Positions 43,431-50,321 are shown, counted from the first letter of the stretch. The stretch is 64,000 bases of DNA from Escherichia coli (GCA_902500005.1 GCA_902500005.1_3678.1), one strand, 5' to 3'. Notes: generated by a model from the letters alone, not told the origin. Numbers and translations are program-made.

Positions 43431-43457
43431 GCCCTGCCCGAAAGGGTGGGGCTTTTT
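43431..43457 (+). terminator. rho-independent terminator (GAAA tetraloop hairpin), copy 1 of 2
   Basis: gccctgcccgaaagggtggggc + tttttg; identical hairpin at 55048. Confidence 0.55.
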
Positions 43458-43475
43458 GCATTAGGAGACAGCAAA

Positions 43476-44240
43476 TTGAAATTTATCTACAAAGAACACT
43501 ACCACAAAGGTGTTGTGTGGAGCCTATTTGACGGATCTGGTGGTGCAGTCATTGACTGGGCAAAAGCTGGGTATCTGTGCCTGTGCTTTAATGCAGAAGG
43601 TGCTGATCACGGCAGTTATGCAGAGGTGATAACCGATCATCCCAACATTCACTATGTGGATTATTGGATTGACCCATGGTTCCCTCAGGAAACTTTTTGC
43701 ATGTACCCAGCTCCAGACTTTATTCTTGCATTTCCTCCGTGCACGCATTTAGCGGTATCAGGTGCTGCACATTTTAAGAAAAAGCTGGCTAAGGACCCCA
43801 TGATCCAAATTAATGCTGTAAGGGATGCTCGGGTTGCGGAAGAGCTGGGAGAGATTTACGATTGCCCGTGGCATGTAGAGAATCCTGTAGGTGTTATGTC
43901 CACACTGTGGCGCAAACCTGATTACCGTTTTCATCCTTCTGACTATGGCGGGTATTTACCGGAAGATGATGTAAACCCATGGTTTCCTGAATTTATAGCT
44001 CCACGTGATGCCTATCCAAAAATAACTTGCGGCTGGATAGGTAATGGATTTATAATCCCGGCCACAAAACCTGTCCCGCAAATAGTTGACGTGGTTAGCG
44101 GGTATTCCATGCAACACGCCAAGCTGGGTGGAAAGAGTGCAAGAACGAAGATGATTCGAAGCCTCACACCACGTGGCTGGGCAAAAGCCGTATTCTTAGC
44201 AAACGAGCCTGTAGTAAGGAGCAGAATTAATGGGAAGTAA
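43476..44240 (+). CDS. compact DNA cytosine-C5 methyltransferase-like protein (~254 aa)
   Basis: Motif I LFDGSGGA (FxGxGG), motif IV FPPCTHLAVSGA (PC catalytic Cys), motif VI HVENPVG (ENV); only in-frame start after the terminator is TTG 43476, 8 nt after AGGAG. Confidence 0.55.
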   Translation: MKFIYKEHYHKGVVWSLFDGSGGAVIDWAKAGYLCLCFNAEGADHGSYAEVITDHPNIHYVDYWIDPWFPQETFCMYPAPDFILAFPPCTHLAVSGAAHFKKKLAKDPMIQINAVRDARVAEELGEIYDCPWHVENPVGVMSTLWRKPDYRFHPSDYGGYLPEDDVNPWFPEFIAPRDAYPKITCGWIGNGFIIPATKPVPQIVDVVSGYSMQHAKLGGKSARTKMIRSLTPRGWAKAVFLANEPVVRSRINGK

Positions 44241-46308
44241 ATTTATGGCATCTGCATACAACCGTTTCGGTGAGCCAAACCCGAAAGCAACTAAGTATAA
44301 AAGTGGGGGAAGTGTGAAACGAGACTATCGTGATGAAAAAGAAGTTGAAACTGTAGAGACTGTTTTAGAAAATACTAAAATTGTCCCTGTCCCACAACAA
44401 AATATCGGTCTGATGGCTGCACAATATTTTGGTGTGCGATCAGCATTATCCCAAGAAGATGGTGTGACAGTCACTGCAACATATTTCCCATATTACGACC
44501 GCTACGGAAATCTGTCCGGTTTCAAAAAGCGTGACTGGACGATTCCTAAAGAGCAAAGAGGCCATTTCTCCGTTGTTGGCATAGTAAAGGCTAACTCTCA
44601 GATGTTTGGTCAAAAGCTGTGTGCATCTTCCAACAACCGTAAGCAGATTAACGTTTGTGAGGGAGAAGGTGATGTTATTGCAGCATGGCAGGCTGCATAT
44701 CAGATACAAGTAAAAGGGATTCTCACCAACGCTAAAGCCCCGGCAAAGGTGAAACAGTGGGCTAAAGAGGTCCAGGACGGGATCGATGCAGTTATCAACG
44801 GTGGTGATCTGGCAGGAAAACCATGCCTGCCTTTTGTTGGAATTAACTGTGGATGTGCAAACGCAGTAGATACTTTTGCAAACAATGAGAAGTTTATCCG
44901 TAGCTATGGAACAGTTGTGCTGGCAATGGATAACGATGCAGCTAACGAGGTAGAGAAGCAAAAACACGTCATTAAAGGTGTTGAGGCCACGCACAATATC
45001 GCAGCATTTTTGATGGCTGATAACGTTTACCACGTAGAATACCCCGGTGAGGTAAACGATCCTGACGGTGTAAAAGATATCCGTGACATGCTAAAGGCTA
45101 AAAAGCTGGAAGATATTGTAAACATGTTCCGGCATCCTGTTAAGTATGTGCCTGATGCTGTGTCGGATTTAGAAGACTTCTCTATCGAATCTTTGCGGAA
45201 AAAGACTTCCAACGGGGTAGATATCAGCGCAGAGTTTCCAAAACTGCAAAAAATGCTAAAAGGCTTGCACAAAGGGACACTCGTAATGCTTACAGGGCCA
45301 TCAGGGGGCGGTAAAACAACTGTAGCTAAAAAACTGGAACATTGTATTGCAAGATACTTGATGGACCCGACATGCCCGAAGGCCGATGACTATGAAGAGG
45401 ATGATCGTCTATGCATGATCCATCTTGAGGAGGACCCAGAGGAAGCAATTAACTCCTTGTATGCAAACCAGCTAGGGTTTGATGTTAAAGAGTTTGTTGA
45501 AGATCCTAGCCAGTTTTTAACTGATCAAGAACACGCAGAGATTCACCAATCATGGGCAAAAGCTGGAAAAATCAAAGTGTTCAAACATTTCGGGTCTATT
45601 CCGGTGGACGAGTTGATTACCAAGCTTAAGCAAATGGTTTGCCTGTACCATTGCCGTTATATTGTGCTGGATCACCTGTCCATGGTAATTTCGGGGCTTA
45701 ATGTTAAGGATGAGCGAAAAGAACTGGACATGGCTATGACCCAGCTGGCTGCGTTTTGTAAGCAGTTCAATGTGTTTATCTTGGTGATCGCTCACCTCAA
45801 ACGTACAGAGATTGTGCCTCCTAAGGACAAGGATGGTAACCCGTTACCTTTCTGGTATCCTGTGCGAAAAGAGAATTTGCGAGGATCGGCTGGGCTTGAA
45901 CAGTTGAGTTGGGTAGTCATAGGTGTCGAGGCCGAAGAAATGGTGGATCGTTCTCGTGGGCGTGTCCGACTGGTAGGTCTTAAAAACCGTCCAGCAAAAA
46001 CTTTAGGTATTGCAGACACTTTGGTTATGGACCCACATACAGGTAAGTTCCATGATGCCAGTAATTGGTACTGGGACAAAGAAATGCAAATGTTTACAGA
46101 TGGAGAAGGTGGGGAGGTTGTTTGGAGACCTCAGGCTATGTTTGAGGATCAGGAGCATGCAGTTGTAGAAACACCTATGGGTAAGGTTGTGGCTGATAAG
46201 GTTGTAACACCCACTGTCAAGCCTATTGACACGCAGGAAGACCTCCAATACGATGATCCATCCTCTGATCCGGTCCCTGGTTTTGAGGATGATGAAACAC
46301 CTTTTTAA
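44230..46308 (+). CDS. DNA primase-helicase (Toprim + DnaB-like helicase, T7 gp4-like organisation)
   Basis: Toprim EGEGD and MDNDAAN motifs in N-terminal half; Walker A GPSGGGKTT and Walker B IVLDHLS in C-terminal half. Confidence 0.8.
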   Translation: MGSKFMASAYNRFGEPNPKATKYKSGGSVKRDYRDEKEVETVETVLENTKIVPVPQQNIGLMAAQYFGVRSALSQEDGVTVTATYFPYYDRYGNLSGFKKRDWTIPKEQRGHFSVVGIVKANSQMFGQKLCASSNNRKQINVCEGEGDVIAAWQAAYQIQVKGILTNAKAPAKVKQWAKEVQDGIDAVINGGDLAGKPCLPFVGINCGCANAVDTFANNEKFIRSYGTVVLAMDNDAANEVEKQKHVIKGVEATHNIAAFLMADNVYHVEYPGEVNDPDGVKDIRDMLKAKKLEDIVNMFRHPVKYVPDAVSDLEDFSIESLRKKTSNGVDISAEFPKLQKMLKGLHKGTLVMLTGPSGGGKTTVAKKLEHCIARYLMDPTCPKADDYEEDDRLCMIHLEEDPEEAINSLYANQLGFDVKEFVEDPSQFLTDQEHAEIHQSWAKAGKIKVFKHFGSIPVDELITKLKQMVCLYHCRYIVLDHLSMVISGLNVKDERKELDMAMTQLAAFCKQFNVFILVIAHLKRTEIVPPKDKDGNPLPFWYPVRKENLRGSAGLEQLSWVVIGVEAEEMVDRSRGRVRLVGLKNRPAKTLGIADTLVMDPHTGKFHDASNWYWDKEMQMFTDGEGGEVVWRPQAMFEDQEHAVVETPMGKVVADKVVTPTVKPIDTQEDLQYDDPSSDPVPGFEDDETPF

Positions 46309-46366
46309 TGTTTAACAAAGAGTGGGAGGGGTAGTACAACCGCCTCCCCTTTAAGGAGAACTGTAT

Positions 46367-48790
46367 ATGAGCATGTGGTCGTTCGATTTTGAGTCATCCG
46401 GTTTGCTGGAAGACCCAGATCTTTATTATCATTGCGGCCTGTTTAAAGAGCTGAATAAGAACCGTTTTATGCTGTTCCTTCCTCTAAATGACCGCACACA
46501 CTACTCCGAGGAGGATATAGAGAAGGCTAAGAACTTTATTCTGGCAAAGAAAACTCTTTATAAAGATTTTGAAGTTCGCATAGCAGATTTTTCGGAGTTG
46601 GAAGGTTGGCTTACAGGAAATTCCGACTGGTCACCAACAGCTTTGAACTGCCATAACTGCTACAGTTATGACTTTATGCTGATGGAGAGATTATCTGGTA
46701 TTCATTTTGATATGTTCCGTGATCCTAAATGTATGGGGACTATCAACGACCACCAGGTTAACCTGTTCGATACGTTGGCGATGAGCCGAATCTTGTGGCC
46801 TGATCGCCCTTTACCAAAAGGTTGTCCGGACTCTGTATTCAACCCGGTTACTAAGAAAATGCAGCCTGTTGGTCCTCACGGCCTTATGGCATGGGGCTAC
46901 GCTCTTGGTAACCAGAAAGTTCAAATTGATGACTGGCGCGATCTTCCGCTGTGGAAGTATGTGGATCGTGTATTCGAGGACGTTATCATCCAGGAGTTGC
47001 TCTGGAAAGAGCTGGTAGCGGAATCAAAAGGTGTATTCTACGGCAAATCTGACATGCAGAACTTTATGTACGATCCTGCCAAAGAGAAGCCAAAAGGGTT
47101 CAAGAAGATCACCTGGAAGAACGCATTACGCCGAGGCATGCTGCAGCACTTCCTGATGGAGCTGCAGGCCCGTCAGGGTGTGTATTTCGACATAGACGGG
47201 GCTATTGCTTTACGTGACCGTTGCGATGCGTGGATGAAAGAAATAGCTGATCGTGTTGAACCACAACTACCTTTAAAAGAGCTGTCAATGTCTCAGCGGC
47301 CCAAGTTCCCTGAAAAGCCGTTTAACCAAGATGGGACAATCTCCAATAATGGTTGGAAATGGTTAAAAGATAAGCTTGGCTATCCTGTAGACATGAGCGC
47401 TTTAGAGTTCAAAGCCCCACCTAAGCGAGCATTTACCTCCACAGGAGATGTCAGTAAAATGGGGATAAAATGGTGTGAAGAGATGGGCTGCAAAGACCCA
47501 GACAAGATGGCTGATTTCTTGAGAGGTTATATTAAGGGCACCTCCACACCACAACCTTTACCTAAAGAGCTGATGGATCAGGCAATAAGCGATCTGCAGC
47601 AGAAGCGAATGCCTGACTGCAAGATACCTATGAAAATCAGCAATCAGGACGATATTAAGCGATACCTGATCAGTGCTGGTTGGCTTCCGACAATGTGGAG
47701 AACTAAGGATGTAACTAAAGACAGCAAGAAGAAAGCTCTACCTGATGCAGATGTTGATGCACGAGTATATGCATATATGGACGAGCTTTTAGAGTCAGAG
47801 TATTGTGACCTGATTATCAACTTCTGGAACAAAACTGATGCTAAGTTCCAGACAACCGTGCACAAGTTCCGAAGCTTTCCTAACTCCGAAAGGATTAAAA
47901 AGGAAGTATTCGGGAAAATACGTAGAAAAGCCAGGGCACTTATTACTTCTCCGCAACTGAAAGATACGTTTGGACACCTATGTCCGAATCTTGAAAAATT
48001 GAACGGAGAGATGGCTAAAGATATCGTCTTGTGGTTATCATTGCGAAACCGCAGATCGGTCCTTGATCCAATTAAGGAGGATAAGGTTGATACTGGTCTT
48101 CTTAATCACCCACGTTTGAAGATTGACCATAAGCTTCCTGCTAAAAGCTCTGGATTAACAAACACTTCCAGACAGAAACACAGTATTTGTGCAAACATGC
48201 CTAAACCATCTCCTAAAGTGGTTATGGGTAAAGAGATGCGTAGTCTGTGGGGTGTTCCTCCAGGATACTTTGAGATCGGTATTGACGGGTCCAACTTAGA
48301 GCAGCTTATCGGGGCTTGGGGTGCCTTTGAGTTCGACAACGGCTTGTATTATGATGTTGTAAGTAACGGGGACGCACACCAAAACAATGCTGAGGCATAT
48401 ACAAAAGTAGCAGGCAGAGAGGTGTCTCGTAACGACGGTAAACCTATCACGTATGGGGTTATGTACGGGGCACAAAAAGATAAAGTTGCAGATATGCTGG
48501 ACATCTCTCCAGAGTTGGGACAAAGGGTGATCGATGCACTTTGGGATGCCAACCCTGGTCTTAAGGGGCGTAAAGAGGATCTGGAGAAATTCTGGGAAGC
48601 AACGGGTAAGAAGTTTATCTACTCTTTTGATGGTCATGCCATCTGGACCCGATCTAAACACTCTTTACTTAATGCATACCAACAGAATGGTGGTGCATCG
48701 CTGTGTGACTTAGTTGGGATACTTATGCACCACCAAATGGTGAAGCGTGGGTGGTACGATGAAGGTGTTCGTCGTATTATCTATTACCAT
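46367..48790 (+). CDS. DNA polymerase, family A, exon 1 (808 codons; 3'-5' exonuclease + polymerase motifs A and B)
   Basis: Exo I FDFESSG; motif A DGSNLEQ; motif B RNDGKPITYGVMYG; ORF stops 2 codons after …IIYYH, just before the expected motif C. Confidence 0.85.
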
Positions 48791-49633
48791 AAATAACATT
48801 GTGGCTTCATAGAGTGATCTATGTCGAATAACCTCTTTAATCGACGGGAAAGCTAAGTTGACTTTTACACCTGAGTATGGTAAAAGCTCAATATGCTAAT
48901 CCGCAGCGAAGACTAAAGGGGTGTAGTTAAAATGGCTAGAACAGCTGATTATCACGGGTATACCGTGTTTGATGATGGAACAATACCTTTATCGAAACGT
49001 GATCATACAACAATGTTTTGTTTTGATAATGGTAGAGGTTACCTTTGCGTAACCATGCTAATCGAGGGGAAGCAGTGCACAAAAGGTGTCCACCACCTGG
49101 TTGCTGAATGCTTTGTATCAAACCCAGATCCTGAAAGGCTCACATGGGTGAACCATAAGGATGGGAATAAGTACAACAATGCATACTGGAACCTGGAATG
49201 GACCACCCCTGGTGGAAATATCAAGCACGCCTATGATAATGACCTCAGAGTAAGGCCAGTTGGTGAGTATAATGCCAACGCTGTGCTGACAGAAGATGAG
49301 GTAATAGAGATTTGCGAACTGTTGCAGAGTGGTCTACGACAATGCGAGATTAGGGATCTTGGATATCCTTATGAGACCGTCAGGGCTATAAAGCAAAGAA
49401 GACAGTGGAAACATATCTCTAAAAACTACACCTGGTAGTAACGTTCAGAGACTATCGAAAGCATAGCGCCAACATAAATTGGTGCGAAGAAGCGAGTAGA
49501 GTAGGCCAGCAAGTGCGGTCGAAATGGGAGGTGCCTTGGTAACAAGGTAGTGAGATAGTCCGATCCATACAGGAAACTGTATGGCTGTGCACGTAATGGT
49601 GCGGGGTAGCTTAACGACCTACCTGAACTATTG
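48791..49633 (+). mobile_element. group I self-splicing intron interrupting the DNA polymerase gene, carrying an HNH homing endonuclease ORF
   Basis: Conserved elements P-like gacgggaaag (48842), Q aatccgcagc (48898), R gttcagagacta (49443), S agatagtcc (49553; P7 gacta/tagtc pairing); 5' exon ends in U, intron ends in G; IGS gtgg (48801) pairs with exon end ccaT; splicing joins …IIYYH to DEYQLQV… restoring motif C. Confidence 0.75.
48932..49438 (+). CDS. HNH homing endonuclease (HNH_3-type), intron-encoded
   Basis: …VHHLVAECFVSNPDPERLTWVNHKDGNKYNNAYWNLEWTT… classic HNH motif; ORF sits between intron Q and R elements. Confidence 0.8.
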   Translation: MARTADYHGYTVFDDGTIPLSKRDHTTMFCFDNGRGYLCVTMLIEGKQCTKGVHHLVAECFVSNPDPERLTWVNHKDGNKYNNAYWNLEWTTPGGNIKHAYDNDLRVRPVGEYNANAVLTEDEVIEICELLQSGLRQCEIRDLGYPYETVRAIKQRRQWKHISKNYTW

Positions 49634-49987
49634 GATGAGTACCAACTTCAAGTCCCTGACACGCCTAAGTATAAGACTGTGTACACCTTCGACACAATTG
49701 AAGAACTGGAAGCATTTAAGGCAGAGCAGGAAGCCAAACTTCATGTGTTCGACGGTCATAAGTACAAAAAGGCACGCAAGGATGAGGACGGAAACGAAGT
49801 GGTTGACAGAGACGGAAACACGGTGTACGATCCTATCCTGAACGATGACGGAAAGCTTGAACTTATCTGGAGCCCTGTGGGTGAAATGGTGGTGCATTGC
49901 TTCTGGCAAGCTTCTAAAATGATGGGAGTCCCGTTCCAGATCACAGGTGAATACTTGTGTGGTCGTAACTGGGGTGATTGTCACTAA
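49634..49987 (+). CDS. DNA polymerase, family A, exon 2 (117 codons; motif C to C-terminus)
   Basis: Begins DEYQLQV (HDE motif completed by exon-1 His); ends …GRNWGDCH, matching T7 DNAP C-terminus …GPNWAICH (from memory). Confidence 0.75.
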   Translation, partial: DEYQLQVPDTPKYKTVYTFDTIEELEAFKAEQEAKLHVFDGHKYKKARKDEDGNEVVDRDGNTVYDPILNDDGKLELIWSPVGEMVVHCFWQASKMMGVPFQITGEYLCGRNWGDCH

Positions 49988-50036
49988 TGTAAACTATCAG
50001 CACAGGGAGGTGCTGTTGAGCAAAGAGGAGACTTTT

Positions 50037-50321
50037 ATGGTAGTAGAGCCAACAAAAACATTTACATCCATGACCATTCCTGTTATTATGCAGGTGGAGT
50101 GTGTTCAGGTATCTCAAGTGTGGCCTGGCACCAAAATCCCAACAGGGCCTGATTTCTTTCAGGTTGGGAAAGTGTACAATGTCTGGAAGGCACCAGATTG
50201 TTACCCTTTCATTAAAGATGACCGTGGGATGCTGTGGTATCTTGGAAATGACTTGACACTGCACCTTGGGAATGCTATTATTGCAGTATTCAGACTTAAC
50301 AAGAAGGAGACCGATCAATGA
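50037..50321 (+). CDS. hypothetical protein (94 aa)
   Basis: ATG 6 nt after GAGGAG; track start 49947 is GTG inside polymerase exon 2. Confidence 0.35.
   Translation: MVVEPTKTFTSMTIPVIMQVECVQVSQVWPGTKIPTGPDFFQVGKVYNVWKAPDCYPFIKDDRGMLWYLGNDLTLHLGNAIIAVFRLNKKETDQ

Follow-up and report, generated by a model that had tools for sequence, protein, structure and literature searches.

A probable mobile IA2-type group I intron with an HNH endonuclease gene in motif C of the T7-type DNA polymerase gene of an rV5-like coliphage

The window, meaning the whole 64,000-nt stretch of DNA that was analysed, comes from an rV5-like (Vequintavirus) coliphage, and the gene considered here (46367-49987) encodes a T7-type family A DNA polymerase that is interrupted by an insert (Table 1). 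The first open reading frame of the gene runs from 46367 to 48796 and specifies 809 aa, ending in ...RRIIYYHK and a stop codon. Downstream of the insert the polymerase sequence resumes with DEYQLQV..., and the last residue of its C-terminal ...GRNWGDCH ends at 49984, immediately ahead of the stop codon (49985-49987). The early stop, the resumption and the C-terminus had all been proposed from the sequence of the window alone, and each of them was found at the position given in that original prediction. Membership in family A is indicated by the presence of both the motif A carboxylate (the D of GIDGS) and the motif C carboxylates (HDE). Motif A (GIDGSNLE) lies within exon 1 and aligns with T7 gp5, as does the motif C His, and the first residues of exon 2 are the catalytic Asp-Glu of motif C, aligned to D654-E655 of gp5. 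In the spliced polymerase GIDGSNLE corresponds to GIDASGLE of gp5 and YYHDEYQL to WVHDEIQV, and the C-terminal 304 aa match gp5 with an E-value of 1.6e-13. Exon 1 alone scores 27.9 bits with Pfam DNA_pol_A, which is below the threshold of 34.3.

The borders of the insert are fixed by alignment with the intron-less nomine allele, which places exactly 843 nt (48791-49633) after CAT and before GAT, precisely the extent and the CAT/GAT junction that had been predicted. In intron-less alleles the two exons are contiguous, the junction reads CAT/GAC with nothing else altered, and the insert is missing as a single exact block. Once the 843 nt are removed, the predicted ligated junction reads ...TATTACCAT/GATGAGTAC... 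and the predicted polymerase is 925 aa long, in line with the ~925 aa expected beforehand, and has 100% identity to polymerases that several sister phages encode without interruption. The insertion point separates the His codon of motif C from the Asp codon that follows, equivalent to H653/D654 of T7 gp5 (RIIYYH/DEYQL aligned with MAWVH653-D654-E655-IQV). At its 5' end the insert starts with AAATAA, which brings an in-frame TAA (48794-48796) two codons past the splice site, and at its 3' end it terminates with a G (49633), a final base that is found in 16/16 introns compared.

Table 1. Features of the interrupted polymerase gene in window coordinates
Feature	Position	Strand	Remarks
Polymerase exon 1	46367..48790	+	codons 1-808, ends ...RRIIYYH; boundary by alignment with the intron-less nomine allele
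Group I intron, subgroup IA2 type (assigned by sequence)	48791..49633	+	843 nt; exact block missing in intron-less alleles, RF00028, covariation
P1	48787..48804	+	exon CCAT 48787-48790 and intron AA 48791-48792 pair with guide TTGTGG 48799-48804
P2 hairpin CATAGA-GTGA-TCTATG	48808..48823	+	two-sided changes in 6/6 pairs among relatives; 100% of cells paired
P3 5' strand (48832-48837) and P4 5' strand, the P element (48843-48848)	within 48832..48911	+	
P5/P5a/P5b extension	48852-48895	+	poorly aligned across genera
Q, the P4 3' strand, AATCCGCAGCGAAG	48898-48911	+	located by sequence
HNH homing endonuclease gene, I-HmuI-like	48932..49438	+	168 aa, 507 nt, terminal loop of P6a
R and P7 5' strand, GTTCAGAGACTA	49443-49454	+	R located by sequence
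P7.1 and P7.2 with GUA linkers, P3 3' strand GGGAGG (49526-49531)	within 49443..49531	+	
P8	49532-49549	+	compensatory pairs 6/7
S and P7 3' strand TAGTC	49556-49560	+	P7 100% paired
P9	49567-49582	+	compensatory pairs 4/6
P9.1	49589-49602	+	compensatory pairs 2/4
P9.2	49605-49623	+	compensatory pairs 3/5
Intron 3' tail	after P9.2, to terminal G at 49633	+	
Polymerase exon 2	49634..49987	+	117 aa, starts DEYQLQV..., ends ...GRNWGDCH and stop (translation)

The RNA elements of a group I intron are present in the insert, and those that had been named beforehand, including the P, Q, R and S elements, the U at the 5' splice site, the terminal G and the guide, all lie where they were expected. The guide GTGG (48801-48804) is part of P1, in which all 6 pairs are kept in 14/14 introns and the U.G wobble at the 5' splice site is invariant across the same 14. 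By sequence, CATT at 48797-48800 may form P10 with the first bases of exon 2 (GATG, 49634-49637). The P-like element lies near 48838-48852, the Q element AATCCGCAGC begins at 48898 and the S element AGATAGTCC at 49553. In subgroup IA2 the stretch from P7 to the P3 3' strand holds two additional helices, P7.1 and P7.2, with G-U-A linkers (PMC3428280). The window intron reads ...CGA-GUA-GA-GUA-GGCC... at this place and the CR9 intron GCC-GAGA-GGC-GUA-GGCG, and the insert is accordingly assigned, from its sequence and by the P7.1/P7.2 criterion, to the group I introns of IA2 type.

An Rfam group I scan had been suggested as a check, and its outcome depends on whether the intron carries an ORF. 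At the gathering threshold Rfam has no match in the whole window, and in sensitive mode it finds solely this intron, which scores 28.5 bits with RF00028 (E-value 5e-5 locally and 0.0028 over the whole window). The gathering threshold of this model is 50 bits, a curation device and not a defining property of group I RNA. The score is this low because the 507-nt ORF in the P6a loop disrupts the model, and the printed RF00028 alignment of the window copy is likewise broken by the insert of ~0.5 kb. Since the window copy is below the threshold, support was sought from ORF-less homologues and from covariation instead. Natural ORF-less introns at the same site all exceed the cut-off of 50 bits, with 64.7 in RudolfGeigy, 73.7 in JEP1, 77.3 in K470 and 91.2 in 19-1-2. 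The JEP1 intron is 93% identical to the window intron where the two align, and a hairpin of 14 nt stands where the window copy has the ORF.

Covariation was counted on an explicit IA2-type structure (P1-P9.2) in 14 introns from at least 6 phage genera. Paired cells make up 92.6% of the structure versus 35-42% when the partners are slid, pairs that change on both sides number 38/81 versus 9-17 in the slid controls, and the covariation score is 0.378 versus at most 0.098 in controls, a value reached by 0/500 shuffles. Besides the helices listed in Table 1, compensatory pairs are found in P3 (3/6, with 97.6% of cells paired), in the outer part of P7.2 (3/4, 96.4% paired) and in P7 (1/5, where a U-A to C-G double change occurs in 3 introns), and pairing reaches 98.4% in P4 and 82.4% in P7.1. 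The catalytic core of a group I intron, made up of P3-P4-P6 and P7-P3-P8 with the P7 pseudoknot, is conserved here through compensatory change. The weakest part of the structure model is P5a/P5b, paired in 61-69% of cells across genera, and P5a/P5b together with P7.1a show pairing in just 61-75%.

Between Q and R, as had been predicted, the intron carries an ORF for an HNH protein, which is preceded by a Shine-Dalgarno-like AAGGGG (48916-48921). Its product belongs to PHROG 59 'HNH endonuclease' (E 1.5e-36), the main family of intron ORFs in the polymerase introns of Bastillevirinae (PMC11878797). The best, and the sole meaningful, match among solved structures is I-HmuI (1U3E, E 3e-5), to which the catalytic His and the conserved Asn residues of the HNH motif align (H75, N87 and N96). 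The residue aligned to D74 of I-HmuI is Asn, so full nuclease activity of the window protein is not assured. Pfam HNH_3 gives 17.7 bits, below the cut-off of 24.8, and no family was found for the ORF in an NCBIfam search. A dN/dS of ~0.05 relative to the HeinrichReichert copy, and a pN of 0.19 at a saturated pS of 0.92 relative to the Av-05 copy, show that the ORF is under purifying selection; Asn stands at position 74 in the Av-05 protein too, which is conserved nonetheless. Elsewhere in the window there is neither a paralogue of the HNH gene nor a second copy of the intron core. A promoter/terminator scan of 46200-50200 returned 10 promoter-like sites versus 6.4 +/- 2.2 in shuffled sequence, and since the region is no richer than shuffled sequence, no promoter inside the intron is claimed.

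An intron in this polymerase gene was already known, and nothing about its presence here is new. The original prediction was right that intron and HNH insertions are known from phage polymerase genes, and the window intron itself is already annotated in near-identical Vequintavirus GenBank records as a joined CDS. The insertion site is identical to that of the window in HeinrichReichert (Bas58, MZ501073), AlexBoehm, WalterGehring and RudolfGeigy (Bas52). The HeinrichReichert intron is 95.3% identical to the window intron over its full length, with point differences only, and its 168-aa HNH ORF differs at 4 residues; in MZ501073 the polymerase CDS is joined from two pieces, with a 'putative homing endonuclease' nested inside, and a joined CDS is also given for RudolfGeigy. 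RudolfGeigy-type alleles differ from the window in having no ORF, a length of 276 nt and other P5/P6/P7.1 peripheries. According to the BASEL paper, comparative genomics was used to define where the introns begin and end (PMC8594841), and no splicing experiment on HeinrichReichert- or RudolfGeigy-type phages was found in the literature.

HNH-containing polymerase introns also occur in phages of the same subfamily, the Pectobacterium phages CB7 and phiTE (Certrevirus, Vequintavirinae). The phiTE intron occupies the same YYH/DE site and is homologous to the window intron at its 5' and 3' ends, a match to the 3' portion of the window intron lies within the CB7 polymerase gene, and splicing of the HNH-containing polymerase introns of CB7 was shown by RT-PCR and sequencing (PMC7344957). 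Introns of the CB7/phiTE type differ from the window intron in their HNH ORF (127 aa, HNH_3 32.9 bits) and in the P5-P6 region. Furthermore, these two phages have a second, upstream polymerase intron that is missing from the window, and two polymerase introns have been reported for CB7 (PMC7344957).

The same position is also used in T7-like phages, which bears on the suggestion that an insertion exactly at HDE is special: the position is upheld by the alignment with T7 gp5, but the distinction is not. In K1F the family A polymerase intron was read directly at the same H/DE site (...MAWVH/DELQ). We take His881 of E. coli Pol I to be the H of HDE. The polymerase introns of phiI and W31 have been assigned to 'site 881' (E. 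coli Pol I numbering); these are group I introns of T7-like phages that were used as structural models for an IA2 intron, and their HNH ORFs were placed in P6a (PMC3428280). By eye, the K1F intron has a layout of R, P7.1(GAAA), GUA and P7.2 similar to that of the window, but its 5' part is too short for a P2 hairpin like that of the window intron. The hosts of the T7-like introns (K1F, phiI and W31) are podoviruses, whereas the window phage is an rV5-like myovirus. The K1F HNH protein has no detectable similarity to that of the window beyond the HNH_3 domain (blastp E 1.6; Pfam), hence the two elements have their site and class of intron in common but differ in the endonuclease. Among the 60 of 118 matching records that were listed, none shows DNA similarity of the window intron to T7-like phages. 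The I-HmuI system resembles the window in that a phage gene for a family A polymerase holds a group I intron encoding an HNH enzyme whose catalytic domain is N-terminal. However, its intron site in the polymerase is different, being listed apart from site 881 of phiI and W31 (PMC3428280), the hosts are Gram-positive, and D74 of I-HmuI is replaced by Asn in the window protein. The nick made by I-HmuI falls in the template strand, 3 nt downstream of the point of intron insertion, and intron-plus DNA is cut by this enzyme as well (PMC3428280).

In one genus and around it, the site occurs in three states, namely intron-less (~50 records), with an ORF-less intron (276, 317 or 328 nt) and with an ORF-containing intron (~33 records), and such a mixture, judged from the sequences, is the pattern expected of a mobile element. 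The copies in the ~33 records are near-identical (94-99%) and lie scattered among relatives that have no intron, suggesting that the spread was recent. For intron-plus alleles, a private tract of co-conversion in exon 2 (GAT GAG TAC CAA versus GAC GAA TAT CAG) was considered and set aside. It holds for most alleles and not for all, with FFH2 being mixed and the intron-less rV5_ev147/156, Murica and JeffSchatz having the intron-type codons, and as the association is not absolute it is not used as evidence for homing. Scans of IMG/VR gave 8 matches to the intron-less junction pattern, 4 of them being the rV5-like polymerase junction and the other 4 looking like chance, and 7 intron-bearing ones, which are too few for frequencies to be drawn.

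We hold with high confidence that a mobile IA2-type group I intron interrupts the T7-type polymerase gene at motif C, between its His and Asp codons. The polymerase gene would be transcribed as a single pre-mRNA, in which the intron RNA would fold into a P1-P10 core, with P1 formed by CCAU at the end of exon 1 and the guide GUGG. An external guanosine would attack at the U.G pair, the freed end of exon 1 would attack after the terminal G, with P10 (GAUG with CAUU) helping to align exon 2, and the exons would be ligated as CAU/GAU to give an mRNA for the 925-aa polymerase. Unspliced RNA would give a truncated product only, because TAA occurs two codons into the intron. In a mixed infection, polymerase alleles that have no intron would be the expected target of the HNH product, which would nick or cut them near the insertion site, and repair from intron-bearing genomes would then copy the intron in, i.e. 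homing.

If the insert did not splice, the polymerase would consist of polypeptides of 809 aa and 118 aa, the latter from a TTG start at 49631, that assemble after translation. Phage precedents for non-splicing HNH insertions exist in CB7_245 and in NrdA of Aeh1, which is split by mobE and has been described as assembling from separate polypeptides (PMC7344957). Moreover, the last three bases of the intron are in frame with exon 2 (TTG in the window, ATG in FFH2), and exon 2 has a gene annotation of its own in several GenBank records. Such an arrangement is nevertheless very improbable here. No Shine-Dalgarno sequence is visible before 49631, the split would part the His from the Asp-Glu inside a catalytic motif, and a complete group I core supported by covariation has been kept across at least 6 genera, which would be unnecessary for a non-splicing insert. 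In addition, the ORF-less versions of 254-328 nt at the same site are explicable only as intron RNA, and the related CB7 polymerase introns do splice (PMC7344957). The sole point in favour of an intein or another in-frame protein-level element is that the insert lies in a conserved catalytic motif, a location that inteins favour too; this reading is ruled out by the reading frames, as an in-frame stop lies two codons past the junction and the HNH ORF is in another frame than the polymerase. In addition, an RNA model matches the insert, and covariation is seen at the RNA level.

It is also conceivable, but unlikely, that the intron splices and is inherited only vertically, its HNH protein being no longer an active homing enzyme but decaying or domesticated, for example as a splicing helper or a DNA-binding protein. 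The Asn at the D74 position and the sub-threshold HNH_3 score are in keeping with this, as is the repeated loss of the ORF documented by the ORF-less JEP1, RudolfGeigy and 19-1-2 introns, and the intron-type exon codons of some intron-less alleles are compatible with intron loss. Against these stand the strong purifying selection seen in both comparisons, the conservation of H75, N87 and N96, the conserved Av-05 copy that has the same Asn, and the 94-99% identical copies among intron-less relatives with the recent spread that they suggest.

Whether the site has a wider role is a question on which we are evenly balanced. The junction between the His and the Asp-Glu of motif C may be a shared landing site, at which one IA2 lineage circulates among unrelated phages and different endonucleases have independently invaded different loops, with Vequintavirus holding all stages of the homing cycle. 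The phage groups that come under this reading are rV5-like phages, Certrevirus, Seunavirus, Avunavirus, Aeromonas Plateaulakevirus, Pseudomonas Pakpunavirus and a Vibrio phage, and the T7-like phages use the same site. The endonucleases concerned are the I-HmuI-like HNH protein in P6a, a short HNH_3 protein in phiTE and a LAGLIDADG protein in the P7.1/P7.2 region of PVP-SE1, and the stages seen in Vequintavirus are the empty site, the intron with the ORF and the intron without it.

To conclude, the window intron leaves current understanding unchanged and represents a further case of a homing element that targets an essential gene at its most conserved codons. It is of use above all for annotation, where recognition of the intron gives the correct 925-aa product. 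Gene callers and GenBank records (FFH2, Av-05 and apparently the rV5 reference) split the polymerase in two, as a 'DNA polymerase' and either a small 'hypothetical protein' or a second 'DNA polymerase', and the default Rfam threshold misses the intron whenever the ORF is present. The occurrence of empty, ORF-less and ORF-bearing alleles in close coliphages offers a convenient setting for studying the homing cycle, and if the shared landing site is real, Vequintavirus would be a natural and tractable coliphage system for measuring the gain, decay and loss of homing elements.

On the evidence of its sequence, the insert that splits the T7-type polymerase gene represents a typical mobile group I intron, of IA2 type, that carries an I-HmuI-like HNH gene. 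BLAST searches against GenBank phages place the window among the rV5-like coliphages of the genus Vequintavirus, and about 30 records match the 1.6-kb region at 94-98.5% identity. The polymerase frame stops after IIYYH and resumes downstream as originally predicted, and joining ...IIYYH to DEYQL... gives a 925-aa protein, the approximate length foreseen for the spliced product, which is 100% identical to the uninterrupted polymerases of nomine, DrSchubert and ECO111 5-P. At the junction the nomine allele reads TATTACCAT followed directly by GACGAA, and alignment with this intron-less allele fixes the insert precisely: it spans 48791-49633 (843 nt), follows a U and has G as its final base, the boundaries that had been proposed. 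The C-terminal part of the predicted spliced product has a match in T7 gp5 (E 1.6e-13), with motif A (GIDGSNLE) aligned to GIDASGLE and motif C (RIIYYH/DEYQL, the slash marking the intron site) to MAWVH653-D654-E655-IQV; therefore, the intron separates the His of the HDE motif from its catalytic Asp, as claimed. The last three intron bases (49631-49633 in the window; 4232-4234 in L003, the FFH2 locus) are in frame with exon 2 and read TTG in the window and ATG in FFH2; for this reason exon 2 appears as a gene of its own (118 aa) in the output of ORF finders and in several GenBank records.

Features of the interrupted polymerase gene and of introns in related phages (window coordinates unless a relative locus is named)
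Feature	Position	Details
Polymerase ORF upstream of insert	46367-48796	809 aa, ends ...RRIIYYHK, stop
Guide GTGG	48801-48804	located in sequence
P-like element	near 48838-48852	located in sequence
Q element	48898	located in sequence
HNH ORF	48932-49438	168 aa
R element	49443	located in sequence
S element	49553	located in sequence
Polymerase frame restart	49634	DEYQLQV...; ends ...GRNWGDCH at 49984; stop 49985-49987
RudolfGeigy intron		276 nt; Rfam 64.7 bits (cut-off 50)
JEP1 intron		328 nt; 93% identical to window intron over aligned parts; Rfam 73.7 bits (cut-off 50)
Vibrio phage K470 intron		254 nt; Rfam 77.3 bits (cut-off 50)
19-1-2 intron		317 nt; Rfam 91.2 bits (cut-off 50)
Second polymerase intron in relatives (Av-05, 19-1-2, phiTE, SSE121)	L004 614-817, L007 614-817, L012 195-865, L013 133-774	

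The P, Q, R and S elements and the internal guide are all present where they had been placed. At gathering thresholds Rfam has no match anywhere in the window, and in sensitive mode RF00028 reaches 28.5 bits against a cut-off of 50 (48781-49583; E 5e-5 locally, 0.0028 over the whole window), in an alignment broken up by the ~0.5-kb ORF insert. The ORF-less introns of several relatives at the identical site provide a natural control, and they score 64.7-91.2 bits; the suggested covariance-model check thus left the window copy below the cut-off, but holds for its ORF-less same-site relatives. JEP1 closely resembles the window intron with a 14-nt hairpin instead of the ORF, between GCGAAG and AACGTTCAGAG, a comparison that locates the window ORF in P6a, within its terminal loop.

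Introns at the same junction, YYH/DE (or SYH, DYH or AYH/DE), were gathered from Vequintavirus, Avunavirus (Av-05, 19-1-2), Certrevirus (CR9, phiTE), Seunavirus (SSE121, PVP-SE1), LTH01, Vibrio phage K470, Aeromonas phage phiA019 and Pseudomonas phage SPA01, and 14 cores were aligned with their ORFs taken out and phiTE excluded. An explicit structure was drawn on the window sequence (P1, P2, P3, P4, P5/5a/5b, P6, the P7 pseudoknot, P7.1, P7.2, P8, P9, P9.1 and P9.2). Standard pairs fill 92.6% of cells versus 35-42% in slid controls, both sides change in 38 of 81 pairs (9-17 in the controls) and the covariation score is 0.378 as compared to at most 0.098, values equalled by none of 500 shuffles. 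Compensatory pairs make up 6/6 of P2 and 6/7 of P8, covariation also occurs in P3, P7, P7.2, P9, P9.1 and P9.2, and P1 is invariant, including the splice-site U.G pair; the peripheral P5a/b and P7.1a align badly across genera and are 61-75% paired. Subgroup IA2 is marked by two helices, P7.1 and P7.2, that are linked through G-U-A and stand between P7 and the P3 3' strand (PMC3428280), and the window intron has this arrangement. CAUU immediately 5' of the guide could form P10 with GAUG, the first four bases of exon 2.

A split polymerase made without splicing of the insert is unlikely given this conserved and covarying ribozyme core, and it also sits poorly with the existence of ORF-less versions, with an exon 2 that no ribosome-binding site precedes and with a break that falls within a catalytic motif. 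An intein is ruled out by the reading frames. The original observation stands, and its reading is supported. The ORF lies between Q and R as described, belongs to PHROG 59 ('HNH endonuclease', E 1.5e-36) and has one meaningful solved-structure match, I-HmuI (1U3E, E 3e-5), a nicking endonuclease from the polymerase intron of SPO1; it scores 17.7 bits against Pfam HNH_3, below the threshold of 24.8, and an NCBIfam search returned no family.

H75, N87 and N96 of I-HmuI are aligned in the ORF, but Asn replaces D74, a change that makes an inactive or domesticated endonuclease possible. Against this, near-identical copies are patchily distributed and the ORF is under purifying selection, with 18 synonymous and 4 non-synonymous differences from the HeinrichReichert copy (dN/dS about 0.05) and pS 0.92 and pN 0.19 relative to the Av-05 copy. 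Codon 74 (49151-49153), whose residue adjoins the catalytic His75 and corresponds to I-HmuI D74, encodes Asn in the window and Av-05 copies and Asp in those of CR9, LTH01 and SSE121. A putative ribosome-binding site, AAGGGG, precedes the ATG at a distance of 10 nt. By eye, ACUA right after Q could pair with either of two UAGU copies (all within 48911-48928 and 49436-49439): pairing upstream of the start codon would put AAGGGG inside a hairpin loop, and pairing at the stop codon would close P6a. Such a switch may couple endonuclease translation to intron folding.

Annotations of sister genomes already include this intron, and both the site and the phage subfamily have precedents in the literature. 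The HeinrichReichert (MZ501073) and RudolfGeigy (MZ501102) records give the polymerase as a two-piece joined CDS, with a 'putative homing endonuclease' nested within it in the former, and comparative genomics was used to set intron boundaries in the BASEL paper (PMC8594841). In the same subfamily, HNH-containing polymerase introns of CB7 splice, as demonstrated by RT-PCR and sequencing (PMC7344957). The insertion at HDE is exact, but the position is not new, since the T7-like phage K1F shares it (...MAWVH/DELQ..., joined gene 5 CDS, group I match 35.6 bits). Beyond the domain, the HNH proteins of K1F and the window are unrelated. His881 of E. coli Pol I is the H of HDE. The phiI and W31 introns lie at position 881 in Pol I numbering, with an HNH ORF in P6a (PMC3428280).

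In the rV5 genome paper the terminase gene is the only one reported to have introns, and the polymerase is given as 775 aa (PMC3606486). In the rV5 reference (NC_011041 / DQ832317) the two exon flanks match separately, so that the junction appears interrupted; an ORF-less polymerase intron of rV5 itself was therefore probably overlooked. That record annotates a 'DNA polymerase' and a 'hypothetical protein'. The GenBank MG0656xx 'Campylobacter phage' records (for example A147, A135 and C12; listed host Campylobacter jejuni) are ~98% identical to rV5-like coliphages across the region, and their host labels look doubtful.

In the GenBank phage collection, the junction is uninterrupted in about 50 records; among the matches listed, at least about 33 carry the full-length ORF-containing intron and at least roughly 27 more an ORF-less one, the latter figure being an estimate based on matches of 80-90% identity together with JEP1 and HMD-6. 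Within the first 12 nt of exon 2, most intron-plus alleles can be told from most intron-less ones by four synonymous positions, but exceptions run in both directions and these differences carry no weight here as evidence of co-conversion. The intron-less rV5_ev147, rV5_ev156, Murica, JeffSchatz and phiWec191 have the intron-type codons GAT GAG TAC CAA (window 49634-49645), which would fit either exact intron loss or pre-existing target-site variation.

A second, upstream polymerase group I intron is found in Av-05, 19-1-2, phiTE and SSE121 (Rfam 47.5-63.8 bits), in most cases with an endonuclease ORF of its own; it is absent from the window, whose exon 1 runs as a single uninterrupted ORF. In FFH2 a free-standing HNH gene separates primase/helicase from polymerase (L003 237-971), and in HeinrichReichert a putative homing endonuclease lies between a Dcm-like methyltransferase and primase/helicase (43632-44303 in its locus, L017). 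Neither is present in the window, where a methyltransferase-like ORF (43446-44240) leads straight into primase/helicase (44230-46308). The same-site intron of phiTE carries a short HNH_3 protein instead. Furthermore, the PVP-SE1 intron at this site (963-1881 in its locus, L014) encodes an endonuclease of the LAGLIDADG_2 family (Pfam 61.4 bits), whose ORF follows the P7 5' strand and sits within the P7.1/P7.2 region and not in P6a, and this different location and family point to one intron having been invaded independently by another endonuclease family.
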